From NCBI GenBank assembly GCA_021767645.1, contig JAASSY010000002.1, positions 1 to 55,267 of the forward strand: a stretch of 55,267 nucleotides of DNA. Direction: 5' to 3'. A program made the position numbers and the translations under genes. Below the pieces are notes generated by a model. It saw only the letters and a list, made by a program, of their open reading frames with translations. It had not been told where the DNA came from and did no database searches. This document shows, piece by piece, positions 17,808 to 46,412 of this stretch; the stretch's first letter is position 1, and each line of letters begins with the position of its first letter. The DNA comes from Candidatus Parcubacteria bacterium. GTDB taxonomy: Bacteria; Patescibacteriota; Minisyncoccia; Phycocordibacterales; UBA918.

Positions 17808-17842
17808 AAAACCAGCACTGCCCGAGGGCAGTGCTGGTTTTT
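17808..17842 (+). terminator. rho-independent terminator after csp
   Basis: 12-bp stem CCAGCACTGCCC/GGGCAGTGCTGG followed by TTTTT. Confidence 0.75.
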
Positions 17843-18761: not shown

Positions 18762-18958
18762 ACGTACGTACAGTATAGCAAGGAAGGGACGCACAATGAC
18801 ACTCCACACGTGGAACCACTCTAGAGGTATATCTTGCAAAATAAGCCAAATATGCTATAGTTTTACTAACCTTCGCAGGTTAACAGAGCGACTTTTAGAG
18901 GACAGTTCTGACTGTGTATCTACCTCATACAAAGTCGCGCTTTTTAAAAACGTGCACT

Positions 18959-22411: not shown

Positions 22412-22445
22412 ACGCGCCCACGACATTTCGTGGGCGCGTTTGTTA
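22412..22445 (+). terminator. rho-independent terminator after pnp
   Basis: 12-bp stem ACGCGCCCACGA/TCGTGGGCGCGT with loop CATT, then TTGTT. Confidence 0.7.
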
Positions 22446-22490
22446 ATTACTACACTATTACAGTATGCGAAACATGCCATACTTACTGTA

Positions 22491-25881: not shown

Positions 25882-25915
25882 AAAACTGCCAGCGTATATA
25901 CGCTGGCAGTTTTTA
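25881..25915. terminator. bidirectional terminator between comM and the LysM-M23 gene
   Basis: AAAAACTGCCAGCG-TATATA-CGCTGGCAGTTTTT. Confidence 0.75.
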
Positions 25916-25926
25916 TAAGCACAATG

Positions 25927-30077: not shown

Positions 30078-30177
30078 TCCACGGCCTTTCCTCAGCTCTT
30101 GCTGTAGTTATACACCAGTTATACGCAGTATTGTCCCCAGAAAGAGTGAGGCGTTGCTATACTATCTATACATATAT

Positions 30178-31065
30178 ATGTATAGTCCGCAGCAGAAACG
30201 AAAAATTATGATTGCCGTCGTCTTCGGTGCTGCCTTAGTTTTAGCGGCGCTCGTTTTCCAGCCAGCACCAGCACCGACACCAGAAACCTCTGCAGCAGGC
30301 GAAGAGGTTGTGACAGTGGCCCTTAATCGAGAGGCCATTCCGGTTCTTGACTCCAACCAAGACGGCGTTCCAGACTGGCAGGAAAGTTTTGTAGCCAACA
30401 CTCCAACGGTACGAGAAATAGCCGAAGCTGACACAACCTATGAACCAAGTGACACTCTGACCGACCAGTTCGCTCGGGAGTTTTTTGAGGAAATGGTCCG
30501 CTCAGACACCATTGGTGACTTCGGTGCTTCGCCAGCCGAGCTCATTGCTCAATCGTCACAAGCACTCAGTGAAGAGGCGGCTGATGAACTTTACTTAGTG
30601 GACGACCTGACTGTACTAGAACAGAGCGACAGTGCGCGACTCTCACGTTACGGAGAAGCAATCGCGCGTATTTTTGTAAACAATGGCTGTGAACCTACCA
30701 CACCTGACATCACCATACTCGAAACCGCTGTTCGGAACGACCAACCCGAGCTGCTAAACGAACTCGATTGCCGTATTGAAGGTTATGCCACCTACGAAGC
30801 TGCCTTACTCCAACTACCAGTACCAGCAAGTGTTCGGTTCGAACATCTCGATCTTCTCAACACGATGCTGGCTCTTAAGAACGACCTGCAAGCATTTCAA
30901 GGCGTGTTTGATGACCCAATGTATACACTAGTACGAGTCCGACGTTACCAATCAGACGCTGAAGCAGTATTTCCTGCCCTTGATGCTCTCTATGAAACAT
31001 TAGTAGTAAATGGGGCTAGCTGGAGTCCTGAGTCAATAGTATTTGCTATAATTAATCTTAATTAA
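30178..31065 (+). CDS. hypothetical membrane-anchored protein (first gene of T4SS-like operon)
   Basis: ATG at 30178. N-terminal TM (IMIAVVFGAALVLAALVF). No family recognised. Stop is 1 nt before the next start. Confidence 0.55.
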   Translation: MYSPQQKRKIMIAVVFGAALVLAALVFQPAPAPTPETSAAGEEVVTVALNREAIPVLDSNQDGVPDWQESFVANTPTVREIAEADTTYEPSDTLTDQFAREFFEEMVRSDTIGDFGASPAELIAQSSQALSEEAADELYLVDDLTVLEQSDSARLSRYGEAIARIFVNNGCEPTTPDITILETAVRNDQPELLNELDCRIEGYATYEAALLQLPVPASVRFEHLDLLNTMLALKNDLQAFQGVFDDPMYTLVRVRRYQSDAEAVFPALDALYETLVVNGASWSPESIVFAIINLN

Positions 31066-31066
31066 C

Positions 31067-32575
31067 ATGCGTTCGTTTTACTGTTCAACGAGCAAATTGC
31101 TCACCATCATTACTTTCATACTGGTTGTTGCTGTGTCAATACCGACGAAGTCTGCACAAGCACTTGATGCAGTTACTGTTGTTGGTGGACCCGGAAGTAA
31201 CGCAGAAGTAGCTACCAGTAAGATCAATGGTGGTATTCTTGGCTTAGAAAAAACTCTCCTCGGAAAAGAATTTGGGTTCGATCAAGTTGCCTGGGCAGTC
31301 GCCCGTGCCGCGGTGCAGAGCATTACCCAGAGTATTATCAATTGGATTAACTCGGGCTTTCAAGGTAGCCCGGCGTTTGTACAAGACCTCGAACAGCACC
31401 TCTTAAACATTGCCGATCAAACCGCCGGTAACTTTATCTATAACGACCCAGCTCTTAACTTCCTCTGTAGTCCATTTCAGCTTGACGTAAAGATTGCTCT
31501 TGCTACCGCCTACCGCGAAAGTCAAAACTTTGCGGAAGAGGCCCAATGTACCCTCACCGACGTCACTAATAACGTAGACGGTTTTATCAATGGCAGCTTC
31601 CAAGAAGGAGGGTGGTCAAGCTGGTTTGAACTTACCCAAAACCCAGTCAATACCCCAACTGGTGCGTACCTAGCAGCTGAAACCGAAATGTACGCCCGGA
31701 TTGTTGACGAACAGGGTCAGGCTATAGAAGAGTTGAGTTGGGGTGATGGTTTTCTCTCCTTTAAAGTCTGTGCTGATACCGATGTCGCCTCCGGCGCTGT
31801 GTCATCTGGTGATTGTGACATTGTTACCCCTGGAGCTACCATTGCTGATCAACTGAACGAAGCTCTGGGTGCTGGACAACGACAGCTTATTGAGGCAGAT
31901 GAAATTAATGAGATTATCAGTGCTCTCTTCGCACAGCTTGCCCAGCAGGCGTTGGGGGGTATGAATGGTCTACTCGGTCTCGGATCACAGGGCTACACCG
32001 ACGCTTCACTCACACAAGGCTTTCCGAGTGCAAACCCTGGAGGAGGGGCTAATAATAGTGGTGGGACATCATACTTGGAAGCATTGGCACAAGAAAACAC
32101 AGCCATTGAACTCCAGGGTGATTTTGACCCACTATTAGATGCTATTGCCACTGAACGAGAATTTGCATCACTTGCTAGTACGAGTGTTAGAGCCATTAAC
32201 AACATTGAAGCGAAAGTGAACGCACATAATGCCATAGAAGATTGTCGCGATGTTGCATTCCCTTCATCATTACGAAACATGCGTCGTGATTTGCAAGACT
32301 CTTATGTGTTAGCGAACACAAACCTTGAACTACTCCAATTAATGCGCACAGCTTTCACTGAAGCTACTAGTGTTGAAGAGCAGTCAGATATCTTGAACCA
32401 ATTCCAACAACTCCAGTCTGACGGTACACTTCATGATGAAGTCGATGTCGTAACTACACAACTACAGCTTGATTTTGACATTGCTGATGCACGTACCCAA
32501 ATTAATTCACAGATTAGTCTCGCTTCGATAGGCTGCGAACCAGATGATGAAAGTAATGAATCAGAAGGACGCTAG
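31067..32575 (+). CDS. hypothetical secreted protein (T4SS-like operon)
   Basis: Signal peptide ending AQA-LD, several Cys pairs, WINSGFQGSPAFV and WGDGFLS motifs. No family recognised. Confidence 0.6.
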   Translation: MRSFYCSTSKLLTIITFILVVAVSIPTKSAQALDAVTVVGGPGSNAEVATSKINGGILGLEKTLLGKEFGFDQVAWAVARAAVQSITQSIINWINSGFQGSPAFVQDLEQHLLNIADQTAGNFIYNDPALNFLCSPFQLDVKIALATAYRESQNFAEEAQCTLTDVTNNVDGFINGSFQEGGWSSWFELTQNPVNTPTGAYLAAETEMYARIVDEQGQAIEELSWGDGFLSFKVCADTDVASGAVSSGDCDIVTPGATIADQLNEALGAGQRQLIEADEINEIISALFAQLAQQALGGMNGLLGLGSQGYTDASLTQGFPSANPGGGANNSGGTSYLEALAQENTAIELQGDFDPLLDAIATEREFASLASTSVRAINNIEAKVNAHNAIEDCRDVAFPSSLRNMRRDLQDSYVLANTNLELLQLMRTAFTEATSVEEQSDILNQFQQLQSDGTLHDEVDVVTTQLQLDFDIADARTQINSQISLASIGCEPDDESNESEGR

Positions 32576-32643
32576 TACATAAACGAAACTGTGGGGAACC
32601 ACCTCATATTACCAATCGTGCGCGCTACAATAGGAAGTGAGCT

Positions 32644-35073
32644 ATGACTAAGCAATGGCCAACAGCGTTGCGGAATTTGGTGGTACTGACCATCTTGCTG
32701 TTTGTGATCCTGTCGCCACTCCAAAGTTTTGCGCAGCAAAATCCAAGTACAGGTTATGTACCCTATGATCAACTGGACGCCTTTGGTGGACCTGGACCGG
32801 ATATAGATGATGATACTGATTTTCAATACAGCCTCGATCCCTTTGGTGGACCTGGACCGGATATAGATGATGACTTAGATACAACTACAGGTGGAAATGA
32901 TGGCATTGCTGGTAACGGAAATGAGGTTTCAGATGATCCCCAAAACCCACAAGGTTCTGGTACCGCTCCTGGCAGCCGAGCGGAGATGCTAAAACTCATG
33001 GACGCCAACTCCACTGAGAAAATATACAACTTTCTCATTATGGCTGGTGGATTCTTTGCCAGCTTTGGTTCGCTCATTTTTGACCTAGCGTTTGAATCAC
33101 TCGTCTTAAAATTTGGCTGTTTAATGACAACACAGTGTGGCGCAGACGGTTGGGGAGGTGGGTCTGTCGGTGGTGCTGTTGATAGCCTGTGGACGATAGT
33201 GCGCGACCTTTTTAACATTCTCTTTATTTTTGCCCTGGTCTTCATCGGCCTGCGCCTCATCCTCAACTCCGACGACACGAGTACGCAACGAGCAGTGGGC
33301 TACCTAATCGCCGCCGCGCTCCTAGTGAACTTTAGTCTCTACGCAGCGAAGTTAGTGGTCGATATCACGAACTTCACAGCCGTGGAAATCCACCAAGCAG
33401 TGGTCGGTGGTATTGGTGGGGAAGAAGGTTTTGGTGTCACAGCTATTTATGAAGATGAAGCAGGAATTGATCGAGAGGTTGACATTGTCACAACCAACGA
33501 GGACGTTTTTAGTAACTCCAGTATTGCTGGCGCTTTTATGCAAGTGATGTCCATCAACACTTTCTTTAACACCACCACTGAAGGAATGAACGCCATCTTA
33601 CTTGGCTTTCTCGCGTTTCTCTTTTTAGTCTACTTAGGTTTTGTACTGGCATACGCTGGTGCCATGATTGTAGTACGGTTTGTCGCCATCATTTTCTTAC
33701 TAATTTTCTCGCCATTTATGTTCTTGGGGTGGATACTACCGCAACTTGAAGGCTACGCTAAAAAATGGCGACAAACATTTCTTGGCTACGCCCTCTACAT
33801 GCCAGCCTTTATCTTCCTGATCTACGTCGCGTTATTTGTCATGATCCAAGTTAGTTCCTTAGGTATTTTTGCTGGTAAAAGCTATAGCCAAGCGATTGAC
33901 GAGGGTGGTAACAACTTCACTATTTTCCTCCTCTTTGTGTTGGGTACCGGCTTCTTATACGCAGCTACGAAGGTGGCTGGTGCTATCAGTAACGCGGGTG
34001 CGGTGGTAGGTATGAATGCTGCTAGTAGTGCAGCTCGTAAAATCACCATTGGTGCTGGTGCTGCTGGTGCTGCTTGGGCAGGTGGCCGGGGAACATCTAG
34101 TATTCTAGGTGGTGGTGCGAATAAGCTCGGTAAAGCTTGGGACGAACGAAATGCTGCTAGTGGCAAACCTCGGGGCCGTACCGGAATGTATTTCCGAGAC
34201 AAACTCAAGTCACTCGAAGACAACAAATATGGTGGGAGCACTTCCTTCAAGCAGCGCCGGGACGAGGAAAAAGCTGAGAAAAAACGTCACGCTACTGCAC
34301 AAGCCACTCAAAAGGTTAAAACTTCAGTTACAGAGCGTAAAAAAGCCGGAGACGCAGCCACTGATGAACAAAAGATTGCCATGGAACGAGCTATTGTTGA
34401 TGCGACCACACCACAACTTGAGAAGCTTGGTGCTAGTACCCTGGCTGAAGACTATGTAGCTGGAGCACTATCTCAAACTCAGTTTGATAACCTCATGAAG
34501 AGTGACGAATTGACTGACGCGGATAAAGCAAAAATCGCAGAGGCGCGAGGAAAAGATGTTAAAGCTCGCTTGACTGATGATAAGACAGGGGAATTCGACA
34601 TCAGCAAAGCCTCAGTCAATCAACTCCAGGCTCTTGGAGCTCGCAGCATGATTGATAACGCAGGTAGATTGAAAGCGTCACAAATGGATGATCTGAAGAA
34701 GAAACTAACTGAGACAGAATTTGACCGCATCAATAACGCTCGAGAAGACCAGCTCGAGGCGATGGGAACTGATGTCTTCATCAAACGAGATAATAAAGAG
34801 ATTGCCAAATTACCAAAAGATATCCTCAGCAAAGAAAGCAATATTGAGCACCTGGTGAAGGAAGACTTACTCAGTGGTGATATGTTGAAACAGATCGCTC
34901 GTGAGAGTAAAGTCGACAAGCGAAAACTGGGGCAGACCATTGCAGCGAAATACAATGCTGCTGGTAAAACTCCACCAAACGACATCCTCGGCTACCTCGA
35001 AGGCGGGGAAGGTAGAGTGTATGGTTTAACACGAGCAGATTTTAGTAGCGGATGGGATGACCCTGTAACGTAA
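32644..35073 (+). CDS. VirB6/TrbL-like polytopic membrane protein with long Lys-rich C-terminal extension
   Basis: Signal peptide, acidic repeat region, 6-8 TM helices over residues about 130-470, Gly/Ala-rich linker, then about 300 aa of charged helical repeats (QLEKLGA / QLQALGA / QLEAMGT). The call rests on topology and operon context. Confidence 0.55.
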   Translation: MTKQWPTALRNLVVLTILLFVILSPLQSFAQQNPSTGYVPYDQLDAFGGPGPDIDDDTDFQYSLDPFGGPGPDIDDDLDTTTGGNDGIAGNGNEVSDDPQNPQGSGTAPGSRAEMLKLMDANSTEKIYNFLIMAGGFFASFGSLIFDLAFESLVLKFGCLMTTQCGADGWGGGSVGGAVDSLWTIVRDLFNILFIFALVFIGLRLILNSDDTSTQRAVGYLIAAALLVNFSLYAAKLVVDITNFTAVEIHQAVVGGIGGEEGFGVTAIYEDEAGIDREVDIVTTNEDVFSNSSIAGAFMQVMSINTFFNTTTEGMNAILLGFLAFLFLVYLGFVLAYAGAMIVVRFVAIIFLLIFSPFMFLGWILPQLEGYAKKWRQTFLGYALYMPAFIFLIYVALFVMIQVSSLGIFAGKSYSQAIDEGGNNFTIFLLFVLGTGFLYAATKVAGAISNAGAVVGMNAASSAARKITIGAGAAGAAWAGGRGTSSILGGGANKLGKAWDERNAASGKPRGRTGMYFRDKLKSLEDNKYGGSTSFKQRRDEEKAEKKRHATAQATQKVKTSVTERKKAGDAATDEQKIAMERAIVDATTPQLEKLGASTLAEDYVAGALSQTQFDNLMKSDELTDADKAKIAEARGKDVKARLTDDKTGEFDISKASVNQLQALGARSMIDNAGRLKASQMDDLKKKLTETEFDRINNAREDQLEAMGTDVFIKRDNKEIAKLPKDILSKESNIEHLVKEDLLSGDMLKQIARESKVDKRKLGQTIAAKYNAAGKTPPNDILGYLEGGEGRVYGLTRADFSSGWDDPVT
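32780..32873 (+). repeat. perfect 34-bp direct repeat (32780-32813 and 32840-32873) encoding FGGPGPDIDDD twice
   Basis: Exact copies with a 60-bp period, read directly. Confidence 0.95.
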
Positions 35074-35079
35074 ACCTCT

Positions 35080-35673
35080 ATGATCACTGACGAACAGCGA
35101 CTTGCGCAGGCTAAAAAACTTCCACCACAAATTGACATGCTTTACTCTGGACCAGAGAATGGTCAACGTATGGCTGATGTCTTCTACCGACACAACCTGC
35201 CCGTTGATAAATACCTCAATTACACACAAGTAATAGGGGATGTCATTCTTGGCTTCTACTACACCAAGGACTTACCGCAGCTACTGCAAAGCCAAGCTGG
35301 ACTCAGCCCTGAGCAAGCTGAACAGGTAGTCACTGACCTAGCAGAGTTCCTATCGCCCGTACTTGAACGTGAACAAGCCACCACTACAGACACTACTGCG
35401 ACAAACGAACCGGCAGTTACGCCAAGTTGGTCAGCCCAAACTGCCACCCCAAAACCGACGACTCCAACCTCCAGTCCTGTTGCCACCACCCCAGCAGTTG
35501 AGACCGCTCCAACCGAACCGGCCACAGCTGAAACCGATGTGCACGATGTAGTACCAATGCGCACCATGCAAGGTGACATGAAGCGAATCCATGGCTACGG
35601 TGCTCTGTACGACGCTGCCGAAGAAGCTGACGAGTCGGTAGTACAGAGCAACCAAGACGACGTACTCAAATAA
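35080..35673 (+). CDS. hypothetical protein with Pro/Thr-rich centre (T4SS-like operon)
   Basis: Track ORF, 7 nt after the VirB6-like stop. No TM and no family recognised. Confidence 0.55.
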   Translation: MITDEQRLAQAKKLPPQIDMLYSGPENGQRMADVFYRHNLPVDKYLNYTQVIGDVILGFYYTKDLPQLLQSQAGLSPEQAEQVVTDLAEFLSPVLEREQATTTDTTATNEPAVTPSWSAQTATPKPTTPTSSPVATTPAVETAPTEPATAETDVHDVVPMRTMQGDMKRIHGYGALYDAAEEADESVVQSNQDDVLK

Positions 35674-35725
35674 GTCCCACACAAAGGGTGGACATGCGTC
35701 AACTAATGAAGAGCGGTCGGTTATA

Positions 35726-36157
35726 ATGAGTCTATCTATGCGATTTGAAGTGCCACAGTTTATTGAAATTGAAGACAAAATTTTTGGTCCGTTTACCTGG
35801 AAACAGTTTGTCTACCTCTGCGGCGGTATTGGTATTGCGGTTGTACTCTTTATCACCACTCCATTTATTGTCTTTCTCGTCTTGGGTATACCGCTCGCTG
35901 GGCTGGCAGCACTCTTAGCGTTTTATCCTATCAATAACCGACCATTTTCAGTCTTCCTGGAAGCTGTTTTTAACTTCTATACCAACACCACCAACTACCG
36001 CTGGCAGCGCACCCAGCAGGCTGTCTACAAAGCCAAGCAAACGACACCAGCCCCCACACCAGACGAAGACGCCCCTCCCCAAGTACCGAAAGACAGTAAC
36101 GGAATTAACTCGCTCGCTCGCAAACTAGAACTGAAAGCCATTCAACAAGAAAAATAA
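35726..36157 (+). CDS. PrgI-family (VirB3-like) small membrane protein
   Basis: FEVPQFIEIEDKIFGPFTWKQFVYLCGG followed by two TM helices, the hallmark N-terminus of PrgI-family proteins. Sits directly upstream of VirB4-type genes. Confidence 0.7.
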   Translation: MSLSMRFEVPQFIEIEDKIFGPFTWKQFVYLCGGIGIAVVLFITTPFIVFLVLGIPLAGLAALLAFYPINNRPFSVFLEAVFNFYTNTTNYRWQRTQQAVYKAKQTTPAPTPDEDAPPQVPKDSNGINSLARKLELKAIQQEK

Positions 36158-36158
36158 T

Positions 36159-36782
36159 ATGCCCACCCAAGCCTCCAGCCAAAAATTTGTCCCTATCAAA
36201 CGCATCCGCGACAACGTGGTGGAGTTTAAAGACGGTCGGTCCGCGATGGTACTCTTAGCTTCCTCGATCAACTTCGCACTGAAATCAACCGATGAGCAAC
36301 GCGCTATTTTGAGTCAGTTTCAGACCTTCTTAAACACCCTCGACTTTTCTATCCAAATCTACCTCCAGTCCCGACGACTCGACATCAACCCCTACCTGGA
36401 GCTACTACAAGGGAGGGAAGCGGAGCAAGACAACGACCTCATGCGCATCCAGCTACGTGAATATATGCAGTTTATTCGCACCTTCACCAATGAAGTCGAT
36501 GTTATGAGTAAAAACTTCTTCGTCGTGGTGCCGTACAGCAACAAAAGTGTGGAGTTGAGCAACAACCTCTCATCACTCTTTGGTCGCAAGAAACAAGCGA
36601 ACGAAGCAGAGTTAGCCTTTGAAGAAAAACGACTACAGCTAGAACAGCGCGCGTCCTTGGTAGAGCAGGGCCTCAACCGCATTGGTGTCCGCACGATCGC
36701 GCTTGAGAACGAGGCGCTGGTAGAAATGTACTACCATATCATGAACCCACATGAAGCTGGTCGCGACGTACCAGGCGCCTAG
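36159..36782 (+). CDS. VirB4 N-terminal-domain-like protein lacking an ATPase domain
   Basis: FVPIKRIRDNVVEFKDGRSAMVLLASSINFALKSTDEQRAILSQFQTFLNTL mirrors the N-terminal domain layout of VirB4/TraC/PrgJ proteins (compare VIAPSGVSITPRTINISGTYARTLFVISYP in the next gene). No Walker motifs. Confidence 0.45.
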   Translation: MPTQASSQKFVPIKRIRDNVVEFKDGRSAMVLLASSINFALKSTDEQRAILSQFQTFLNTLDFSIQIYLQSRRLDINPYLELLQGREAEQDNDLMRIQLREYMQFIRTFTNEVDVMSKNFFVVVPYSNKSVELSNNLSSLFGRKKQANEAELAFEEKRLQLEQRASLVEQGLNRIGVRTIALENEALVEMYYHIMNPHEAGRDVPGA

Positions 36783-36841
36783 CCGTGTGGAGTAGACTTG
36801 TTGTAGGTAGCTAGAAAGCTTGCGACAATAAAGACATACCT

Positions 36842-38653
36842 ATGGCGATCGGGGATTTATTTGGTGTTGGCAAAAAAAATGACACTCCAGAAGAGGAGCG
36901 GGTTTTAAGTGCGGACGAGTCGCTGATGACACTCGAGGACGTGATTGCCCCGTCGGGTGTCTCGATTACACCACGCACCATCAACATTAGCGGCACGTAT
37001 GCTCGCACACTGTTTGTTATTTCCTACCCTAAATACCTCAATGACGGCTGGCTCGAACCCATCCTCAACCTCGAAAAGGAGATGGACATCTCTATCACCG
37101 TCCACCCAGTCGATACTGCTGAGTCGCTGAAGAAATTTCAAAAAAAAGTGGCTGAAGTAGAGAGCCAGATCGCTACCCGAGCCGAGCGCGGTCTGGTGCG
37201 CGACCCACAACTAGAGGCTGCCCACCGCAACCTCGAAGACCTGCGCGATAAGCTACAACAGGCAGAAGAAAAATTATTCGACGTCGGGCTCTACATCACG
37301 ATCTACGGCGACAGCGAAGTAGCCCTCAATAAAACAGAAGGGGAGTTGAAGAACATTCTCGACGCTCGCCTGGTCTACCTCAAACCAGCCACCTTTGAGC
37401 AGGAGAAGGGGATTAAGAGTGTACTGCCGTTTGTTGATGACCAACTCATGGTGCACAGCAAGTTTAACTCCTCGCCCCTCTCGAGCTTTTTCCCGTTTAC
37501 CAGTTTCGACCTGACCTCAGATACTGGTATCCTCTACGGCATCAACCGCCATAACTCTAGCCTGGTATTGTTTGACCGGTTTGAACTAACCAACTACAAC
37601 TCAGTCACCTTTGCTACTTCAGGTGCTGGTAAGTCGTACACGACGAAGTTAGAAATCCTCCGCTCTCTCATGTTTGGAACTGAAGTGATTGTTATTGACC
37701 CCGAACGTGAGTACGAGTACTTAGCCGAAGCAACCGGTGGACGGTTTTTCAATATCTCACTCTCGTCCAGTCACCACATCAATCCGTTTGACCTACCAAA
37801 GCCACAAGAGGACGAAAACCCAGAAGATGTTCTGCGTTCACACGTCATCGAGCTTATCGGCCTATTCCGTCTTATGCTCGGTGGTCTCTCACCAGAAGAG
37901 GAGACGCTCATCGACCTGGCTATTAACGAAACCTACGCCCTTAAAGATATTACCGGTAGCGCTGACTTCTCGGAGTTAGAAGCTCCACTACTATCTGACT
38001 TTGAAATGGTACTTGCCGGCATGGAAGGTAGTGCTTCTCTTATTTCGCGTCTACAGAAGTACACTTCTGGTACCTGGAGCGGTTTTATGAACCAGCCAAC
38101 GAACGTCGACATTAACCAAAAATTTGTTGTCTTCTCGTTGCGTGATATGGAAGACGAGCTGAAGACGGTGGCGATGTACATCATCACCAACCACATCTGG
38201 GGAGCAATCCGCCGCCGCCTAGCCAAGCGCTTACTGGTTATTGACGAGGCGTGGTGGATGATGAAAAGTGAAGATACTGCCTCGTTCCTGTTTATGCTCG
38301 CCAAGCGAGGGCGTAAGTACTACCTAGGACTTTCCACTATTACCCAAGACGTAGAGGACTTCCTACGCTCGCCGTACGGCGTACCAATGATCACGAACTC
38401 CAGTCTCCAGCTCTTAATGAAGCAGTCACCGACCGCCATCGACACTATCCAAAGCACCTTCAACCTGACTGATGAAGAAAAGTTTTTGTTGCTTGAGAGT
38501 AATGTCGGGGAAGGGATATTCTTTGCCGGACTAAAACACGTTGCCATTCGGGTCATTGCTTCGTACACTGAAGACCAGATTATCACTTCGGACCCGTCGC
38601 AATTACTCGCTATTAGGGAGGCCAAAGAAGAGCTCAAGGCCAGCCGCAGCTAA
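36842..38653 (+). CDS. virB4: VirB4/TrbE/PrgJ-family type IV secretion ATPase
   Basis: Walker A FATSGAGKSYTTK, Walker B LLVIDEAWWMM, STITQD sensor region, 603 aa. Confidence 0.85.
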   Translation: MAIGDLFGVGKKNDTPEEERVLSADESLMTLEDVIAPSGVSITPRTINISGTYARTLFVISYPKYLNDGWLEPILNLEKEMDISITVHPVDTAESLKKFQKKVAEVESQIATRAERGLVRDPQLEAAHRNLEDLRDKLQQAEEKLFDVGLYITIYGDSEVALNKTEGELKNILDARLVYLKPATFEQEKGIKSVLPFVDDQLMVHSKFNSSPLSSFFPFTSFDLTSDTGILYGINRHNSSLVLFDRFELTNYNSVTFATSGAGKSYTTKLEILRSLMFGTEVIVIDPEREYEYLAEATGGRFFNISLSSSHHINPFDLPKPQEDENPEDVLRSHVIELIGLFRLMLGGLSPEEETLIDLAINETYALKDITGSADFSELEAPLLSDFEMVLAGMEGSASLISRLQKYTSGTWSGFMNQPTNVDINQKFVVFSLRDMEDELKTVAMYIITNHIWGAIRRRLAKRLLVIDEAWWMMKSEDTASFLFMLAKRGRKYYLGLSTITQDVEDFLRSPYGVPMITNSSLQLLMKQSPTAIDTIQSTFNLTDEEKFLLLESNVGEGIFFAGLKHVAIRVIASYTEDQIITSDPSQLLAIREAKEELKASRS

Positions 38654-38658
38654 GTCCT

Positions 38659-39336
38659 ATGGCCACTACTACCAACGCAACTGTGGCTCGGCAAAAACAA
38701 TCGGCCCAACCCCGGAATCCTCACGTTAATCCACGCACCCGAGATACTCGTACTACAGTCACCGTCAAACAGCCCGGAGCACTACAGAACGCTCGTAGCA
38801 ATCCGGTTGCTCAGCAACGTAAGCAGCGCAGTCGTGCTAAGCAGATAGGTCAACGAGCTACCCGGCGGCTCAGACCACGCTGGATGCGTCGTCGACGTAA
38901 AAAAATCAACGACCCCGCTTTACGCACCGCTGCCACCACCTGGCGCGTCTTTCAAAAAACAAAACTCATCGGACTAGCTGCATCACAATCTATTTTTTTA
39001 GCGGTTCCATATGCAGCAACTGCGGTTCTGGCAGCTTTAAGTATTTATGCCAATTACTTTATTGATGACTCAATGATTGGTAGTGTCACATCGTTTTTTC
39101 TTCCTCTAGAGCAATTGGACAGATATGCGGGTCTCATTATTGCCGCCCTAGGAGTGGTGTTTGTTACCACCTCATACGCTCTTATGTTAGCTACATTTAC
39201 CAATATTTTTAGTGGTCGCGTCGCCATACCTTTTTTAATGGCCAGTGTGTTCTATATGGCCTGTCTCGTTTACCCACCCCTTGGTATCGCACCAGTAATG
39301 ATTATATGGCTTTGGGTGGTGGCTATCATCTACTAA
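38659..39336 (+). CDS. hypothetical membrane protein with highly basic N-terminus (T4SS-like operon)
   Basis: About 90 aa Arg/Lys-rich region, then about 4 TM helices. No family recognised. Confidence 0.55.
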   Translation: MATTTNATVARQKQSAQPRNPHVNPRTRDTRTTVTVKQPGALQNARSNPVAQQRKQRSRAKQIGQRATRRLRPRWMRRRRKKINDPALRTAATTWRVFQKTKLIGLAASQSIFLAVPYAATAVLAALSIYANYFIDDSMIGSVTSFFLPLEQLDRYAGLIIAALGVVFVTTSYALMLATFTNIFSGRVAIPFLMASVFYMACLVYPPLGIAPVMIIWLWVVAIIY

Positions 39337-39395
39337 CAGTAATTATCTTACAAGCCACACCAGCTGGCTAAATAGCCTTTACAGCGTGCTATTCT

Positions 39396-40379
39396 ATGAG
39401 TATGCGACTTATACTCATTACCCTTGTCTGTCTCTTTGTACCACTTTGTAGCTGGGCGCAATTTAGTAACATTAACGACCTCACCAACCTCGACACGACC
39501 GCCAGCCTCACCACCGCACCACGATTTCCTGGGCCCAACGAACAGGTGACCGTAACCCTTAATGACTACCAGTACCAAACCACTGGCGCCACGATTGATT
39601 GGTATATTAATGATGTTCTACAACCCAATCTACAAAACCAGCGTTCGATCACCATCACCACTGGAGAGCTAGGAGACAGCACAACAGTGCGCAGTCGAAG
39701 CACGCTCAAAAACGGACAAGTTATACCCGCCTCTACCACCATCAGGCCAGCAGTAGTTGACTTACTCGTTGAGGCCAACACTCTCACACCGAGCTTTTAC
39801 CCCGGCCGAGCGCTACCGAGCCCAGGCAGCCAAGTCCGTGTAACCGCTATACCGTTTACCGCAACCAACGGCTCTAATCCTGAACGTTTTTCGTATACCT
39901 GGGAAGTGAATGGGGAAGTACAAGACGGTGGCGCTGTGCGGGAGAAAAACTATGTTGTCTTTCGGTCTGATTTTGGTCGTTCCGTACAAGTGAGCGTTAG
40001 TGTGTTTGACAACAATAATACTCTCATAACCAAAGCCAGAACTAATGTTCCCATCACCGACCCAGAATTACATTTTTATGAAGTCAACCCACTGCGTGGC
40101 TTACTGCCAACCGCCTTACGCGACCCCCACATTATGACTGGCAATGAGCTGCGCCTCCGCGCCGAACCGTATTACTACGACCCAACCGCACTACAAAATA
40201 ACAACACCTTGATCGAATGGGAGATTAATGGATCACAAGTAGAGAATACCAGCGATGACCCGTTTGAAGTTACCCTCCGCCGCCAAGGGGAAACTGGGTC
40301 ATTCACCCTGGGGTATCACATCCGCAACCTATCGCAGTTATTGCAAGGAGTGGAGGACAATATCAGAATACAATTCTAG
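39396..40379 (+). CDS. hypothetical secreted beta-rich protein (T4SS-like operon)
   Basis: Signal peptide (LCSWAQ). Three roughly 90-aa segments with a P.PG..V.VTA-type pattern suggesting Ig-like repeats. Confidence 0.55.
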   Translation: MSMRLILITLVCLFVPLCSWAQFSNINDLTNLDTTASLTTAPRFPGPNEQVTVTLNDYQYQTTGATIDWYINDVLQPNLQNQRSITITTGELGDSTTVRSRSTLKNGQVIPASTTIRPAVVDLLVEANTLTPSFYPGRALPSPGSQVRVTAIPFTATNGSNPERFSYTWEVNGEVQDGGAVREKNYVVFRSDFGRSVQVSVSVFDNNNTLITKARTNVPITDPELHFYEVNPLRGLLPTALRDPHIMTGNELRLRAEPYYYDPTALQNNNTLIEWEINGSQVENTSDDPFEVTLRRQGETGSFTLGYHIRNLSQLLQGVEDNIRIQF

Positions 40380-40380
40380 T

Positions 40381-41241
40381 ATGCGATTATTCATACTTAT
40401 TGTTGCTTGCACATTCCTCCTGGGAGCCAGCTTGTCCTTGGCGCAAGTTGAAGGTGATATCGCTAATCAACCAGTCATCCCCGGCCAAACCAGCGCTTCG
40501 CCGGCCGCACAAGCAGATATCAATCGTATAAACGCTGGCGCAAAAGGTGCTTTCGTTCCCCTTGTCGGCATCCCCTTCGTAGAAGATAGTGAAGTCCGGA
40601 CCGCCGGCCTCGCCGCCTACGTCAATAGTCTCTACACTGCGGTAATTGTGATTGCAGCGGTGTTAGCGGTACTCCGGATTGTAATTGCCGGCGTGCAGTA
40701 CATGTTGTCTGACATTGTTACCACTAAAGCCCAAGCCAAGAAGAACATTCGTAACTCACTGCTGGGACTTATCTTAGTAGTAGCGGCGGTACTAGTCCTA
40801 GAAACGATCAACCCACAGCTCACCAACTTGTCGGTGTTAAATCTGCTGGGGTTGAGTGGGGATTTGCGTGATACACCAATTCGGGTGGATACTGGAGGCT
40901 CACCACCCACATACACAGGCCCATCTTCATGCGGACGAGACGAGAGACTTATTCAAAATATAACTAACAACCAAATTGTTCGGGAATGTATTTCGATTTC
41001 CGAAGACACTAATTCTAACATTCCTAATGAGGGAGATCTTGGAGTAGGGGAGGTTTTAGAACAACAAGATGTCGATATTCCATGCGGCAACCCCAATGGA
41101 TGTAACGCAGCAAATGGGTATGACAACCTGAACGGTGTGAGTAGCGCTTCCGCTACATGTGACGAGCTCAGTTCTGGAACTGGACAATTTAACCAGCTTA
41201 GTGTCACACAAGGAATATGTACTTGGGTTACCCAAGAATAA
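40381..41241 (+). CDS. VirB2/TrbC-type T4SS pilin-like protein with Cys-rich C-terminal extension (paralog 1)
   Basis: Signal peptide (SLSLAQ), VPLVGIPFV, then two hydrophobic helices separated by a basic loop (YVNSLYTAVIVIAAVLAVLRIVIAGVQYMLSD..KAQAKKNIRNSLLGLILVVAAVLVLETINPQL). A C-terminal domain of about 120 aa with 6 Cys follows. Confidence 0.65.
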   Translation: MRLFILIVACTFLLGASLSLAQVEGDIANQPVIPGQTSASPAAQADINRINAGAKGAFVPLVGIPFVEDSEVRTAGLAAYVNSLYTAVIVIAAVLAVLRIVIAGVQYMLSDIVTTKAQAKKNIRNSLLGLILVVAAVLVLETINPQLTNLSVLNLLGLSGDLRDTPIRVDTGGSPPTYTGPSSCGRDERLIQNITNNQIVRECISISEDTNSNIPNEGDLGVGEVLEQQDVDIPCGNPNGCNAANGYDNLNGVSSASATCDELSSGTGQFNQLSVTQGICTWVTQE

Positions 41242-41323
41242 CCTATTTTATACCAGTTTGCCCACATAAAGTCTTGGTGAATTTATATATAATTAATTCG
41301 CTATTAACTGGTATAATTAACCC

Positions 41324-42502
41324 ATGAATCGTACCACTCTAATTAGTGCAGCTATTATTATCACCCTCATCATCGCAGCGGTCTGGGTGTACCTCCTCTT
41401 CTTCGGCACCCCGAATAACACCAATGAAGTGTTCACCAACCTCGGCTTCACCCCAACCACACAACCCACCACGGTGGTACCTAGCGGAAACCAAACTGGC
41501 AGCGCGCCCATCGGCGACTTAGTCGACACCAACAGCCAGGCCCTCAACCAACTAACCACCCGTCCCGTTGCCGGCTTTACCACCTACACCGCCACCTCTG
41601 GCCCAATGGCACGCTACGTCGAACGAGGTACCGGCCACGTGTTTGACCTCAACCTCACTTCCGGTCGAGAAAACCGAGTATCACCCACCACCATCCCCCA
41701 AGTCAGCAGGGTAGTCTTTAGTGACGACCCAGATGTCTTTGCCCTACAACAAAACCAGACCTACCAAAAACCAGTCACCCTAGCGACCCTCGCAGATGGT
41801 CAACTACTCACCAACAACGTCAGCGCCAACGGTGAAAACCTCGACTTTAGAGGCGGCGCTCTCCGCTACACCACTCTCGCCGGTGGCGATACAGTGGGAT
41901 ACAGCGTGAACACCAACACCACCGAACAAACTGAGCTGTTTTCATTTGCATTTGCTGAGCTCGATGTTTGGTGGGGCGACGACACTAACCCAACCTACCT
42001 AGCCACTAAACCAGCTAGCAACTTAGCGACCTACGTCTACCAGGCAACAGACAACTCCTACGAGCGCGAGCTGCCTGCTCGTACCGGGCTGGTTGGGTTT
42101 AGCGAGGACGGAAACCACATTATTACTTACGCTGATAACGGACTACTTATATCCCGCTCTATCGATAGCGGGACTGAGGAATCGTTTGAACTACCGATCG
42201 TCGCCCTAGGAGAGAAATGTATTTTTGATAATTTAGAAGCAACTTATTTATGGTGTGCCGCTCCGTTTGAACCCTTGGCTGCCAATCATCTCAACAGCTG
42301 GTATAAGGGAGTGAAGCAGAGTAATGACGCTTTGTGGCTTGTCAACCTCAACACCCAAACCGCTGAGCTAGTAGCTAATCCTGAAGACATCGCTGGTCGA
42401 CCGCTCGACATCGTCAAGCCAGCACTTGGCACCTCTAACGACACGTTGTTTTTTATCGACCGCACCGACCACACACTTTGGAGCCTAAGTCTTGTTGACT
42501 AG
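41324..42502 (+). CDS. hypothetical membrane-anchored beta-rich protein (T4SS-like operon)
   Basis: N-terminal TM (ISAAIIITLIIAAVWVYLLFF). Repetitive beta-strand-like pattern, possibly a propeller. No family recognised. Confidence 0.55.
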   Translation: MNRTTLISAAIIITLIIAAVWVYLLFFGTPNNTNEVFTNLGFTPTTQPTTVVPSGNQTGSAPIGDLVDTNSQALNQLTTRPVAGFTTYTATSGPMARYVERGTGHVFDLNLTSGRENRVSPTTIPQVSRVVFSDDPDVFALQQNQTYQKPVTLATLADGQLLTNNVSANGENLDFRGGALRYTTLAGGDTVGYSVNTNTTEQTELFSFAFAELDVWWGDDTNPTYLATKPASNLATYVYQATDNSYERELPARTGLVGFSEDGNHIITYADNGLLISRSIDSGTEESFELPIVALGEKCIFDNLEATYLWCAAPFEPLAANHLNSWYKGVKQSNDALWLVNLNTQTAELVANPEDIAGRPLDIVKPALGTSNDTLFFIDRTDHTLWSLSLVD

Positions 42503-42548
42503 TGGGGAACAGGTCAAGTAAATATAAAGACTATAGTACAATATGTGT

Positions 42549-43505
42549 ATGCGACGTATTGTAGCTATACCAATACTCTTGACCGTCCTAACACCACTCA
42601 GTGTGCTCGCCCAAGACTTTGTACCATTGGTAGGTATCCCGTTCGTGGACGACGGTGAAATTGGTGGTAGAGACGGCGCCGGCCTCGCTGCCTACGTCAA
42701 CAGTCTCTACACTGCGGTAATCGTGATTGCCGCGGTGTTAGCAGTACTACGGATTGTCATTGCTGGGGTGCAGTACATGTTGTCTGATATTGTCACGACC
42801 AAAGCCCAAGCTAAGAAGAATATTCGCAACTCTTTGTTGGGGCTAGTTTTAGTGGTAGCGGCAGTGTTGGTGCTGGAGACGATTAACCCGCAGCTGACAA
42901 ACTTGTCAGTCCTCAACCTACCTGGGTTGAGTGGGCAGTTGAATAATACGCCGATTAGAGTGGATACGAACAGTGGGGGTGGAGGGAGGAACATGCGGGC
43001 GGAAGAAAGCGCTGACTGCTCTGCGGCTGGCAACAGACCAATAGTTTACAACGGCCGTAACCAAAATTTTGTCTGCTGCGAGTCAGCTGACACCCACGAG
43101 CGCTGTTCATCTGTGTTTCCAAACAACACCGACCAAACAGTTGTGGCCACCAAAGACTTCTCTGGCAACGGAGCTGGTGAGACAGCGGATGCGTTTGCCG
43201 AACAGTTTGAACAAGACAACCCCAACACCAGCTGCTCAGTCGAGCAAAGAGGTTCTCGCCGAGACACATCACAACGTGTAACATGCACCAGCTCCGGATC
43301 AGACAATGCACAAACAGTCAACTATCGCATCAACGACCCCGCCATGCCAGACCTGGGTATAACAGAACCAGGGGCCAACCATAATGAGCCTATTACTGTA
43401 GTAGAAGTAATCGAATCAGAAAACATGGTGACTGTGATAGACGCCGCCGGGAGACAATTTGATATTGGCTGTCAAAATATTCAACCACGCCCAAATGGTT
43501 GTTAG
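42549..43505 (+). CDS. VirB2/TrbC-type T4SS pilin-like protein with Cys-rich C-terminal extension (paralog 2)
   Basis: Same pilin core as 40381..41241 (84 of 86 core residues identical). Unrelated C-terminal domain of about 170 aa with 8 Cys. Confidence 0.65.
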   Translation: MRRIVAIPILLTVLTPLSVLAQDFVPLVGIPFVDDGEIGGRDGAGLAAYVNSLYTAVIVIAAVLAVLRIVIAGVQYMLSDIVTTKAQAKKNIRNSLLGLVLVVAAVLVLETINPQLTNLSVLNLPGLSGQLNNTPIRVDTNSGGGGRNMRAEESADCSAAGNRPIVYNGRNQNFVCCESADTHERCSSVFPNNTDQTVVATKDFSGNGAGETADAFAEQFEQDNPNTSCSVEQRGSRRDTSQRVTCTSSGSDNAQTVNYRINDPAMPDLGITEPGANHNEPITVVEVIESENMVTVIDAAGRQFDIGCQNIQPRPNGC

Positions 43506-43508: not shown

Positions 43509-44237
43509 CTACACCCGGTGTTTGCGCACGATATACTCCTGCGCAATAGCGGTGATGTTGCTCACCGTGAAGTACAGCGCAATGGCTGCTGAAAAAGCGT
43601 ACGCTACAAACACAATAATAATCGGCATGACGTACCGCATCTGCATTTGCATACTGCGCTGGAAGTCTTCTTTGAAGTTCGGTTCAGCGCCTTTTTCTTT
43701 CGGCTCCATAAGCGGCATAGAGAGTCGGACGTGAATAAATTGGGTGAAGCCGGCTAAGAGAGCGAGTGGGAGGCTCTTGGCAGCAATATCAAACACTCCA
43801 AACATAAACATAGAAACTGTTTCCGGCGTCGGTATAAAACCGTACAGCACGTCAGTATTAATTGCCGGCAAGGCCGAACCGCCGCCGTTCATGACCGAGA
43901 GGTAAAGGGCAATAATAATAGGAAACTGAATGAAGAGGAGCAAAATACTGGAGAAAGGATTGATGTTTTTTTCTTTATAGAGCTCCATCATGGCCTGTGC
44001 CTGCTCTTGTCGATCAGTGATATCTTCTTTCAACTGCTTCATCCGTGGCTCAAGCTCACGCATGACCGCTTGCATTTTGGTCACCTTAATAGAGAGAGGC
44101 AGTATCACCAGCTTAATGAGTACTACTGTACACACAATTGCCAATCCCACATCACCCCCAGGGAGGACATCAATAAAAAACACCAGTGTGTTGTAGACTG
44201 GATCAAAGAAAAAGGTGTGCCAAATATAACTCCACAT
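43509..44237 (-). CDS. yidC: YidC/Oxa1-family membrane protein insertase (short form)
   Basis: LAIVCTVVLIKLVILPLSIK, KMQ..ELEP..K.LKE, NPFSS..L.FIQ.PI motifs. Conserved yidC-rnpA-rpmH order. Confidence 0.9.
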   Translation of the reverse strand: MWSYIWHTFFFDPVYNTLVFFIDVLPGGDVGLAIVCTVVLIKLVILPLSIKVTKMQAVMRELEPRMKQLKEDITDRQEQAQAMMELYKEKNINPFSSILLLFIQFPIIIALYLSVMNGGGSALPAINTDVLYGFIPTPETVSMFMFGVFDIAAKSLPLALLAGFTQFIHVRLSMPLMEPKEKGAEPNFKEDFQRSMQMQMRYVMPIIIVFVAYAFSAAIALYFTVSNITAIAQEYIVRKHRV

Positions 44238-44290
44238 AAACTATCGTGTATTGCTGCGCATTGTAGCCTGATTCAGACGTTCGTGCAAAA

Positions 44291-44617
44291 CTACCAACCA
44301 ATATCAACTAGTGCCTGACGCAGGAGTGTCGCACGCTTTTTTTGTGGCACCGCAGCCAAAGCCGGCTTAGCCACCACAATCACGGTTCCAACGAACCCAC
44401 GTTCAGCCCGTACATCACTGAGCGTAGCGTAGAGCTGGCGTCGCAGGCGGTTACGATCAACGGCTTTTTTATACACCTTTTTACCCACCACCACCGCAGC
44501 CTGAAAGGCGGGGGAGGGGTGATAAATCAGCTGTAACTCTTTGGTGTGCAACCGCTTACCTAACGAAAAAGAACGATCAAACGCTTGCTTGGTTAATCGT
44601 TCTTGTTTCTTGAGCAT
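44291..44617 (-). CDS. rnpA: ribonuclease P protein component
   Basis: KAVDRNRLRRQL motif, 108 aa, located between rpmH and yidC. Confidence 0.85.
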   Translation of the reverse strand: MLKKQERLTKQAFDRSFSLGKRLHTKELQLIYHPSPAFQAAVVVGKKVYKKAVDRNRLRRQLYATLSDVRAERGFVGTVIVVAKPALAAVPQKKRATLLRQALVDIGW

Positions 44618-44644
44618 AGGCTCAGTATACCGAATGATTCGGGG

Positions 44645-44794
44645 CTACTTACTCTTTTGTACCGTCAAACGCGCTCGCCCTTTACGGCGTCGAGCCTTGA
44701 GGATTTTAGCACCAGTTTTTGAAGCGGCTCGCACGAGGAAACCGTGTGTGGTCATACGCTTCTTTTGACTAGGTTGATAGGTTCGTTTTGGCAT
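44645..44794 (-). CDS. rpmH: 50S ribosomal protein L34
   Basis: [11 protein letters not shown]...HGF..R..........RR.KGR..LT signature. Internal ATG at 44794. Confidence 0.9.
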
Positions 44795-44962
44795 AATCGT
44801 GAATTTATGCGCAGCACTATACGCTATTACTGACACATTTTCAAGTACCTACAGCACCCTTTACCACCAAAAGTGCGGCAGCTAGTTTATGCACAACTTT
44901 TTCCACAGCTGCAGCTGGGTTTGGTTTTAAAAATGAAAATAGCTAGCTATTTTTGGTAAACG

Positions 44963-44990
44963 TTTACAGTTTTTGCAGGGTAGGTATAAT
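44963..44990 (+). promoter_or_regulatory. candidate dnaA promoter (TTTACA-N16-TATAAT)
   Basis: Hexamers read directly, about 28 nt upstream of the dnaA ATG. DnaA-box-like TTATGCACA (44887-44895) and TTTTCCACA (44899-44907) lie just upstream. Confidence 0.4.
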
Positions 44991-45017
44991 GACCAGTACG
45001 TTTGCTGAAAGTTGTCC

Positions 45018-46412
45018 ATGAATTCTTCCACCCACACATCAAATTCAAATACGAACAATATTGTTCAGACTGAACAAATTGATGTAAAGAAATTATGGGA
45101 TGATGCGTTGGTAACCATCGAGCTTTCTATTTCTCCAGCCAATTTCAAAACCTGGTTTAAAGATACACACATCGTCTCACTTGAAGACGGCTTGGTAACA
45201 CTGGGAGTGCCGAGTGTATTTGTTCGCGACTGGATTGCTGATAAATTCCAATCAATGATCTTGAAAGCGCTGCGCGATCTTACTCCACACGTACGCAGTA
45301 TTGAGTACGCGGTTGTACAGCGCTCAGAAAAAGCTAAAAGTGAGACCAGCCGACCCCAAACCGTGAACGCAGCCCTGCCACTTGAGGAGTACTACATCAG
45401 CAAGAGTGACAACCTTAATCCAAAATACATTTTTGACACATTTGTGGTTGGTCCATTTAACGCCTTAGCCCACACTGCAGCCAAGACTGTGGGGGAGAAG
45501 CCAGGCATCGCCTACAACCCCCTCTTTATCTACGGCAAAACCGGCCATGGTAAAACCCACCTCATCCAAGCCGTCGGTAACTACCTGAAAAACCACGGCA
45601 AAAAAGTATTTTATGTGACGAGTGAACGCTTCACTGTCGATTACTTCAACTCACTCCAAAACGGCACCGCCAACAACTTTAAGGACAAGTACCGTCAATA
45701 TGACGTTCTCATCATGGACGATGTCCAGTTTTTGGCTAATAAAGAAAAAACCCAGGAAGAACTCTTCCACCTCTTTAATGCCCTGCACGACAACAACAAA
45801 CAGATTATTTTCTCCAGTGACATTCACCCCGCCCTTCTCTCTGGTCTAGAAGAACGTCTTCGTTCTCGCTTCGCTCAAGGTATGATTGTCGACATTCCAG
45901 CTCCTGATATGGAATCACGAGCCGCCATCTTGCGCGCTAAAGCGGCGCAAAATTCACTCACGCTGGATGAGGCAGTGGTAGAACACTTGGCCAACACCAT
46001 TGAAGGAAATATTCGGGAACTGGAAGGAGCCTTGAACACCATCATGTGTCAAACCCAGCTGACTGGACGCGCACTCTCGCTAGATGAAGTGAAACAAATC
46101 ATCAAAAATAGCACTCGGCCACGCAAATCACTGGCTGTGTCTGATGTGGTAGACAAAATCGCTCGTTACTACGAAGTGGAGCCAAGTTCAATTTACGAAA
46201 AAACTCGTCGCAAAGAAATCGTTAAGCCGCGACAACTCATTATGTACATCTTGCGAGAAGATTTTCAGGTATCCTACCCAGCCATCGGACAGAAACTGGG
46301 TGGTCGAGACCACACCACCGTCATCCACTCCTGCGAAAAGATTAAAAACGAACTGAAAGACAATAACGACTTAGAGGAAGAAGTAACACAGATACGACTC
46401 CTCCTCAAATAA
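45018..46412 (+). CDS. dnaA: chromosomal replication initiator protein DnaA
   Basis: AAA+ Walker A GKTGHGKTHL, Walker B LIMDDVQFL, sensor motifs, C-terminal DNA-binding domain (GGRDHTTVIHS). Confidence 0.95.
   Translation: MNSSTHTSNSNTNNIVQTEQIDVKKLWDDALVTIELSISPANFKTWFKDTHIVSLEDGLVTLGVPSVFVRDWIADKFQSMILKALRDLTPHVRSIEYAVVQRSEKAKSETSRPQTVNAALPLEEYYISKSDNLNPKYIFDTFVVGPFNALAHTAAKTVGEKPGIAYNPLFIYGKTGHGKTHLIQAVGNYLKNHGKKVFYVTSERFTVDYFNSLQNGTANNFKDKYRQYDVLIMDDVQFLANKEKTQEELFHLFNALHDNNKQIIFSSDIHPALLSGLEERLRSRFAQGMIVDIPAPDMESRAAILRAKAAQNSLTLDEAVVEHLANTIEGNIRELEGALNTIMCQTQLTGRALSLDEVKQIIKNSTRPRKSLAVSDVVDKIARYYEVEPSSIYEKTRRKEIVKPRQLIMYILREDFQVSYPAIGQKLGGRDHTTVIHSCEKIKNELKDNNDLEEEVTQIRLLLK

Follow-up and report, generated by a model that had tools for sequence, protein, structure and literature searches.

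A Relaxase-Free Type IV Secretion Gene Cluster of the Patescibacteria Type beside dnaA on a Paceibacteria Chromosome

We analyzed a 55,267-nucleotide stretch of a Paceibacteria chromosome, from a Candidatus Parcubacteria bacterium (the window; positions 1-55,267 of contig JAASSY010000002.1), and in it a cluster of 12 same-strand genes at 30154-43505 (+), here called g1 to g12 in order of transcription, that encodes a type IV secretion system (T4SS). This cluster is the already published Patescibacteria T4SS, described between 2020 and 2025 and carried beside the replication origin by nearly all ultrasmall Patescibacteria (candidate phyla radiation, CPR). Taken as a whole, the locus is very probably best explained as a vertically inherited, chromosomal T4SS of the Patescibacteria clade, derived from the MPF-FATA type, that has lost its relaxase and coupling half and serves as a nonconjugative host-interface machine for an epibiotic lifestyle.

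A survey of 3,035 Patescibacteria genomes found a monophyletic VirB4 clade nested in the monoderm MPF-FATA group, with TrsD, PrgI/VirB3, VirB6, and VirB2-like pilins adjoining virB4 and, in Paceibacteria, with the locus near dnaA, dnaN, rnpA, ksgA, and rpmH (Quinonero-Coronel et al. 2025, PMC12102498). Because composition and context are both in that paper, what the first-pass annotation of this DNA had found is a rediscovery; some of the accessory genes and the architecture of the pilin tails have not yet been described. That annotation called the components mostly uncharacterized, which is true of four genes that have no fold assignment but not of the system itself. In Saccharibacteria, the origin-proximal T4SS of Southlakia epibionticum ML1 (SEML1_0006-0019) is essential for epibiotic growth by transposon sequencing (Wang et al. 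2023, PMC10633639). A review from 2025 and a perspective from 2024 describe the function of the T4SS as unknown and float effector delivery or uptake (PMC12857230, PMC11665869).

RESULTS

The core machinery is that of the Patescibacteria T4SS

The motor, g7, is a VirB4 ATPase that retains an intact Walker A (ATSGAGKS) and an intact Walker B (LLVIDEAWWM). It shares 82-92% identity with thousands of proteins in metagenome-assembled genomes of Patescibacteria/CPR, labeled Kaiserbacteria, Paceibacteria, or Parcubacteria; the closest plasmid VirB4s, all of the monoderm CD1110 type, are 28-36% identical. Encoded beside virB4 is g6, which profile matches identify as the TrsD component: it scores 1.9e-10 against VirB4_plasma (model positions 101-249 of 894) and 1.2e-5 against CD1110, and it matches TrsD across the full length (0.0038). 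Its orthologues bear the Pfam TraC-like domain (PF26593).

The polytopic membrane protein g3 has no direct Pfam match. With a profile of 40 orthologues, the best match in the PDB was the R388 VirB6 protein, TrwI, with E=0.011 across 228 positions; Pfam TrbL/VirB6 was matched by 8 of the 40 orthologues, at best with 2e-8, and g3 also matches CD3337/EF1877 (E=0.0078). The VirB6/TrbL-like assignment made at first pass therefore stands by transitive homology, and the VirB4, PrgI, and pilin assignments all lie above the Pfam gathering scores (Table 1).

Gene order, base composition, and conservation argue for vertical inheritance

For comparison we used 80 loci from Paceibacteria, one genome per species, and scored presence and identity by tblastn. 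With almost no exception, the 80 species keep the order uvrD-ksgA-g1-g2-VirB6-(g4)-PrgI-TrsD-VirB4-(g8)-g9-pilin/g11-yidC(-)-rnpA(-)-dnaA-dnaN, which answers the earlier proposal that synteny be mapped across related genomes. The cluster has a GC content of 0.487, and the remainder of the window one of 0.489. Given the conserved order and a GC content equal to that of the flanks, we take the cluster to be vertically inherited and not a genomic island or an integrated conjugative element.

The core genes and several accessory genes were found in most relatives: g6 in 78 of 80, g5 in 77, g9 in 74, g11 in 69, and g2, just upstream of VirB6, in 59. Detection of g1, at the same position, was limited to 34/80, and g4 could be detected in no more than 18 relatives, all of them close. 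The median identities were 71% for VirB4, 60% for DnaA, 57% for UvrD, 52% for the TrsD-like protein, 42% for PrgI, and 26-36% for the extracytoplasmic proteins of the cluster. To judge from these identities, the motor is under strong purifying selection, and the pattern is the one expected of an indispensable motor joined to a fast-evolving host interface.

Pfam scans of the cluster and of the other sizeable open reading frames (ORFs) of the window, which were housekeeping only, found no relaxase, coupling protein, or VirB11 in the 55 kb, in agreement with the first reading. That reading had also reported no flanking integrase or att features. A XerC/D-type tyrosine recombinase does exist in the window, but it does not flank the cluster (Table 1).

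The cluster is a packed array facing the predicted origin

A packed array of 12 genes with gaps of 1-82 nt had been reported between rsmA (ksgA) and yidC-rnpA-rpmH-dnaA, and all of its ORFs are in place: the gaps from g1 to g12 are 1, 68, 6, 52, 1, 59, 5, 59, 1, 82, and 40 nt. The end of g12 lies 3 nt from the stop codon of the convergent yidC, and the flanking genes UvrD, KsgA, YidC, RnpA, RpmH, DnaA, and DnaN were confirmed, so the setting is as first described. Promoter and terminator scans gave counts indistinguishable from those of shuffled sequence and are uninformative on operon structure.

The cumulative GC skew has its minimum at about 45-47 kb. DnaA boxes are not enriched over the window, and the only ones upstream of dnaA are an adjacent pair. 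The + strand gene block at ~19-43.5 kb, with the T4SS in it, points toward the skew minimum and dnaA (44.8-46.7 kb). Since it is transcribed in that direction, the T4SS operon would run head-on to a leftward fork, which is consistent with the orientation proposed at first pass, and this orientation is kept in the 80-locus comparison. It seems to fit awkwardly with the published argument that the position provides gene dosage and high expression.

The two pilins share a core and differ in their tails

The T4SS_pilin scores of g10 and g12 are 35.7 and 35.8 bits, above the Pfam gathering score. The cores of the two proteins (~115 aa) are ~95% identical as protein and 82% identical as DNA, and their C-terminal domains are unrelated, that of g10 being ~115 aa with 6 Cys and that of g12 ~180 aa with 8 Cys. 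Because the protein core is so much better conserved than the DNA, we take g10 and g12 to be old paralogues under purifying selection. Recent gene conversion between them was considered and rejected, as the shared segment has just 82% nucleotide identity.

Most relatives have a single pilin gene, before or after g11, and this genome has two. Across species the core alone aligns, giving a coverage of ~0.35. A further match of the core is to Mbov_0395, a "pilin-like" family of Tenericutes/Firmicutes elements. A Firmicutes locus on a Pontibacillus megaplasmid (NZ_CP062975.1; positions 4480-14033 of locus L084) carries an Mbov_0395 pilin-like protein, a VirB6-like protein, and a VirB4 that is 34% identical to the one in the window, followed by a large M23 endopeptidase, and within 9 kb no relaxase or type IV coupling protein (T4CP) is annotated. 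This locus may represent, outside Patescibacteria, an analogous minimal monoderm T4SS that bears pilins. From the Mbov_0395 match and the Pontibacillus trio of pilin, VirB6, and VirB4, it follows that pilin-like proteins are not exclusive to Patescibacteria among the monoderm relatives.

Accessory proteins

At first pass, no family had been recognized for seven genes. This remains so for four of them, those starting at 30178 (g1), 31067 (g2), 35080 (g4), and 38659 (g8), whereas g6 is TrsD-like, g9 is Ig-like, and g11 is a beta-propeller. PHROGs and NCBIfam searches of the orphan genes gave nothing useful beyond the TrsD/VirB4 N-terminal matches to g6.

In g9, the repeats are ~100 aa long and each has an invariant Trp (W69, W169, and W275). 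With E=1.6e-6, the g9 family profile matches T4 Hoc in its Ig-like domains, and 14 of 38 orthologues match BiPBP_C and 6 of 38 match Ig_3. The g11 family profile matches TolB structures, at best with E=3.8e-5, and orthologues weakly match several beta-propeller Pfam families.

The start codon of g1 is ambiguous (30154 TTG, 30178 ATG, or 30208 ATG). Its family profile has no match in PDB or Pfam, and a word-index homology search gave 3 proteins only. The family of g2 is large, with 5686 clusters at 50% identity matching at E<=0.001 in an exhaustive profile search; among the 150 closest matches listed from that search there was no annotated distant relative, and profile searches against PDB were empty. 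Structure prediction followed by Foldseek, suggested earlier for all the orphans, was run on g1 and g2 and returned no PDB fold match and no VirB8-like fold. The AlphaFold2 model of g1, from a shallow alignment (pLDDT 64), gave generic helical-bundle matches only and no Foldseek match at E<0.1. For g2 the model, from a 102-sequence alignment, has a pLDDT of 70 overall and >95 at residues 355-488, with a confident C-terminal four-helix bundle and, again, no Foldseek match in PDB at E<0.1. No cluster gene has a sequence match to VirB8-like (NTF2-fold) proteins, and both models are helical, not NTF2. We also considered whether g2 is VirB5/TrbJ-like, as a few family members match the short DUF4141 at the N terminus; this weak hint is unsupported by fold or sequence and was set aside.

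At the C-terminal end of g4 is a conserved motif, P-M-R-T-M-x-x-D-M-x-R-I-H-G-Y-G-A. A motif of this type, [IM]-R-T-[FM]-x-x-D, recurs 8 kb upstream (22440-24362) in a membrane protein of 640 aa without annotation, where it stands at residue 26, and the shared motif could be a docking or sorting signal. This membrane protein also has a (PAE)n repeat at ~22610-22720 and accounts for the AT-skew peak of 0.33. No homologue of g8 was found in the relatives by tblastn; an ORF with a polar N terminus and 2-4 transmembrane helices lies directly 3' of virB4 in most of them.

By prediction, g4, the TrsD-like protein, and VirB4 are cytoplasmic, VirB6, PrgI, g8, and the pilin cores are in the membrane, and g1, g2, g9, g11, and the pilin tails are extracytoplasmic. 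For g2, g11, and the pilin tails, this placement is suggested by cysteines that are even in number or invariant.

A wall hydrolase near the cluster

The statement that the window has no obvious VirB1 hydrolase is correct for the operon itself, inside which there is no VirB1-like wall hydrolase, and has to be amended for the window, since a LysM/M23 peptidoglycan hydrolase is encoded 3.1 kb upstream. In Paceibacteria, VirB1-type matches that contain M23/LysM domains are associated with virB4 (PMC12102498). The hydrolase here is also found upstream of uvrD-ksgA-T4SS in two relatives (L081 and L082) and is a candidate for the functional analogue of VirB1. Its gene and one for a ComM/YifB-type Mg-chelatase-like ATPase together occupy 24373-27024, on the opposite strand and just upstream of uvrD-ksgA-T4SS; both are present in L081 (2705-5116), and L082 has the peptidase (427-1359) without this ATPase. 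In other bacteria, ComM serves as a helicase in natural transformation.

Other features of the window

A tRNA-Arg(TCG) on the - strand (8981-9053) lies inside the 5' end of the ORF for the CCA-adding enzyme (8813-10675); the true start of this enzyme is probably downstream of the tRNA, since the Pfam match begins at residue 153. Two paralogous M14 zinc carboxypeptidases are encoded by adjacent, slightly overlapping genes at 14090-16004. At 1781-3955 (-), the gene for an ECF-type sigma factor precedes one for a DUF5667 protein, and the two look like a sigma/anti-sigma-like pair. The DUF5667 domain is typical of CPR genomes.

Table 1. Features of the cluster and its surroundings (window coordinates; TM, transmembrane)
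Feature	Position	Strand	Description and evidence
XerC/D-type tyrosine recombinase	17841-18839		11 kb from cluster, among housekeeping genes, not flanking
LysM/M23 peptidoglycan hydrolase	25927-27024	-	Pfam; upstream of and outside the operon
g1	30154-31065	+	N-terminal TM anchor, DxDxDG-W motif, extracytoplasmic helical domain; no family
g2	31067-32575	+	All-helical and extracytoplasmic, with a signal/TM anchor; Cys pairs invariant; large unannotated family
g3, "extended" VirB6/TrbL-like	32644-35073	+	Polytopic membrane protein, 809 aa, ~8 TM helices, ~330-aa charged C-terminal domain
g4	35080-35673	+	Soluble, predicted cytoplasmic; conserved ~95-aa helical N-domain, PT-rich linker; no family
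g5, PrgI/VirB3-like	35726-36157	+	Two-TM hairpin; Pfam PrgI 1.7e-9, 38.5 bits (cutoff 27)
g6, TrsD-like	36159-36782	+	Homologous to N-terminal part of VirB4; NCBIfam matches
g7, VirB4 ATPase, Patescibacteria clade	36842-38653	+	Pfam P-loop_TraG 90.5 bits; PDB 4AG5 E=2e-40
g8	38659-39336	+	Basic disordered N terminus, then 3-4 TM helices; fast-evolving, position conserved
g9	39396-40379	+	Secreted; signal peptide and three tandem Ig-like beta-sandwich domains (family profile)
g10, VirB2-like T4SS pilin	40381-41241	+	Signal peptide, two TM helices; PF18895 9.2e-9
g11, TolB-like beta-propeller	41324-42502	+	N-terminally anchored; invariant Cys pair C299, C311
g12, second VirB2-like pilin	42543-43505	+	PF18895 8.9e-9; NCBIfam Mbov_0395 pilin-like 2.4e-6
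yidC	43509-44237	-	Convergent with g12
Origin-proximal flank	43509-46412		yidC(-), rnpA(-), rpmH(-), dnaA(+); rpmH by translation
DnaA boxes, near-consensus	44887-44907		Adjacent pair, one mismatch each, upstream of dnaA
dnaA	45012-46412	+	

DISCUSSION

The first-pass annotation proposed a chromosomal, nonconjugative apparatus for uptake, effector delivery, or cell-cell contact. Our data support this, as do the published studies (PMC12102498, PMC12857230, PMC11665869, PMC10633639). With neither a relaxase nor a T4CP, conjugation is very unlikely. Going by what is established for T4SSs, we imagine that hexamers of VirB4 dock onto PrgI/VirB3 and VirB6 and spend ATP on extracting pilin from the membrane and polymerizing it, so that a short pilus or conduit crosses the thin wall. 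Accessory proteins, whether anchored or secreted, would scaffold passage through the wall and contact the surface of the host cell, and the nearby M23/LysM hydrolase may open the peptidoglycan.

Several points weigh against reading the locus as an inherited machine of the host interface. The direction of transport, its substrate, and the formation of a pilus are all things that we infer. Membership of this VirB4 in the Patescibacteria clade is judged from levels of identity, operon status from spacing alone, and what ties the accessory genes to the T4SS is their conserved adjacency alone. Essentiality was shown solely for the system of Saccharimonadia, another class with a different accessory set, and the need for the T4SS in an epibiotic lifestyle is assigned here by likeness to that Saccharibacteria homologue. 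A relaxase or coupling protein could be encoded elsewhere in the genome, and most Patescibacteria do have VirD4-like matches far from virB4 (PMC12102498).

As to what such a host-interface machine might do, our tentative preference, held at somewhat less than even confidence, is that macromolecules of the host (DNA, nucleotides, or others) are taken up or exchanged. We lean this way because ComB and Ced, which have no T4CP, are precedents for import and because Patescibacteria are without biosynthetic pathways.

One can also envision a translocator of protein effectors into the host bacterium, in the manner of Brucella VirB, Bordetella Ptl, or the Streptococcus suis 89K system, although we think this unlikely on balance. 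Protein-exporting T4SSs without a T4CP do exist, Ptl and that of Brucella among them (cited in PMC12857230), and Wang et al. favor a role to "export proteins or an alternative capacity" (PMC10633639). The soluble g4, encoded in the operon and with its conserved short linear motif, would be a possible substrate or adaptor. However, the cluster contains no recognizable effector-like genes, chaperones, or known secretion signals, and a monoderm without T4CP has no known receptor for cytoplasmic substrates.

Attachment by itself is a further, rather improbable, account, in which a VirB2-type pilus with variable, Cys-rich tails binds host surfaces and nothing is transported. The strong purifying selection on the pilin cores, combined with C-terminal domains that are lineage specific, is consistent with such an organelle, and adhesion and wall binding are typical roles for accessory proteins of the Ig-like and beta-propeller kinds. 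Yet Patescibacteria already attach by means of type IV pili (PMC12857230), and translocation too is suggested by the presence of an extended VirB6 channel protein and by how extremely VirB4 is conserved.

That the cluster is an integrated conjugative element, whole or as a decayed remnant, with a relaxase, a T4CP, and att sites that lie outside the window or were recently lost, is highly improbable: the nearest plasmid-borne VirB4 relatives do sit in conjugative modules (the closest, on an Embleya plasmid, in the consecutive order PrgI-VirB4-T4CP-relaxase) and the window does hold a tyrosine recombinase (17841-18839), but the recombinase is XerC/D-like and 11 kb off in housekeeping surroundings, the GC content is that of the flanks, position and gene order are identical in 80 species, VirB4 is conserved above DnaA, the window has no relaxase or T4CP, and relaxases occur in just 103 of the 3,035 Patescibacteria genomes (PMC12102498).

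Within the inherited host-interface machine, we give nearly even odds to a more specific proposal, that the Paceibacteria T4SS has a conserved extracytoplasmic module (g1, g2, g9, g11, and the pilins, with their ultraconserved cores and lineage-specific, Cys-rich tails) that is absent from characterized T4SSs and from the Saccharibacteria model. Such a module would replace VirB8, VirB1, and an adhesin; it would span the wall and recognize the host, with the pilin tails setting host specificity. In any case, g9, g11, g1, g2, and the pilin tails are concrete candidates for determinants of host recognition.

The Patescibacteria T4SS, a monoderm system with VirB2-like pilins, is widely counted among the new T4SS branches of greatest interest, and no T4SS before it had been found essential to the bacterium that carries it. 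The window offers a clean Paceibacteria example and no new kind of system. Three points may guide experiments: conservation of the motor above that of DnaA as against low conservation at the surface, the unnamed accessory set, and the duplicated pilins with unrelated tails. To our knowledge, the class Paceibacteria has no cultured, genetically tractable member.

Comparison with known systems

The Helicobacter pylori ComB and archaeal Ced systems resemble the locus in that a VirB4-type ATPase works with polytopic membrane and pilin-like partners, without relaxase or T4CP. ComB, however, has a diderm VirB7-10 core that is absent here, and Ced uses CedA/A1/A2 and depends on separate pili. We saw no sequence relationship to either beyond VirB4, and DNA import by the Paceibacteria system would be by analogy only.

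Closer are the monoderm MPF-FATA systems (pCF10 Prg, pGO1 Trs, and the CD1110 family), which share a VirB4 of 28-36% identity, PrgI, TrsD, VirB6, and the lack of an outer-membrane core, and which have a wall hydrolase nearby, for which the locus here has a candidate outside the operon; Firmicutes relatives of this type also bear a pilin-like Mbov_0395/PF18895 protein. Unlike them, the locus described here lacks a relaxase, a T4CP, and a PrgB-type adhesin, and no VirB8-like protein is recognizable in it. The locus is also chromosomal and vertically inherited, and its pilins have large extracellular tails.

The Saccharibacteria locus of S. epibionticum is likewise origin-proximal, has VirB4 with a small neighboring protein, PrgI, VirB6-like proteins, and PF18895 pilins in a cluster without relaxase or T4CP, and is adjoined by an exported Ig-like (PEGA) protein. 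The Saccharimonadia locus has as many as six pilins and two VirB6-like proteins, together with an NTF2/VirB8-like protein and one of the phage-tail-lysozyme type. In the window there are two pilins, their Cys-rich tails long, and a single VirB6, with a triple-Ig protein, a TolB-like propeller, the helical g1 and g2, and no recognizable VirB8.

The closest counterpart is the Paceibacteria T4SS of the 2025 survey (PMC12102498). There, g1, g2, g9, and g11 are unnamed and presumably among the genes drawn in grey, and the terms TolB, PD40, and Ig-like do not occur in the part of its supplement that was available to us. Paceibacteria relatives mostly have one pilin where this genome has two paralogues. 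The core is the same, a relaxase is likewise missing, and the ksgA/rnpA/rpmH/dnaA/dnaN neighborhood is shared; nothing essential differs between the published system and the one in this window.

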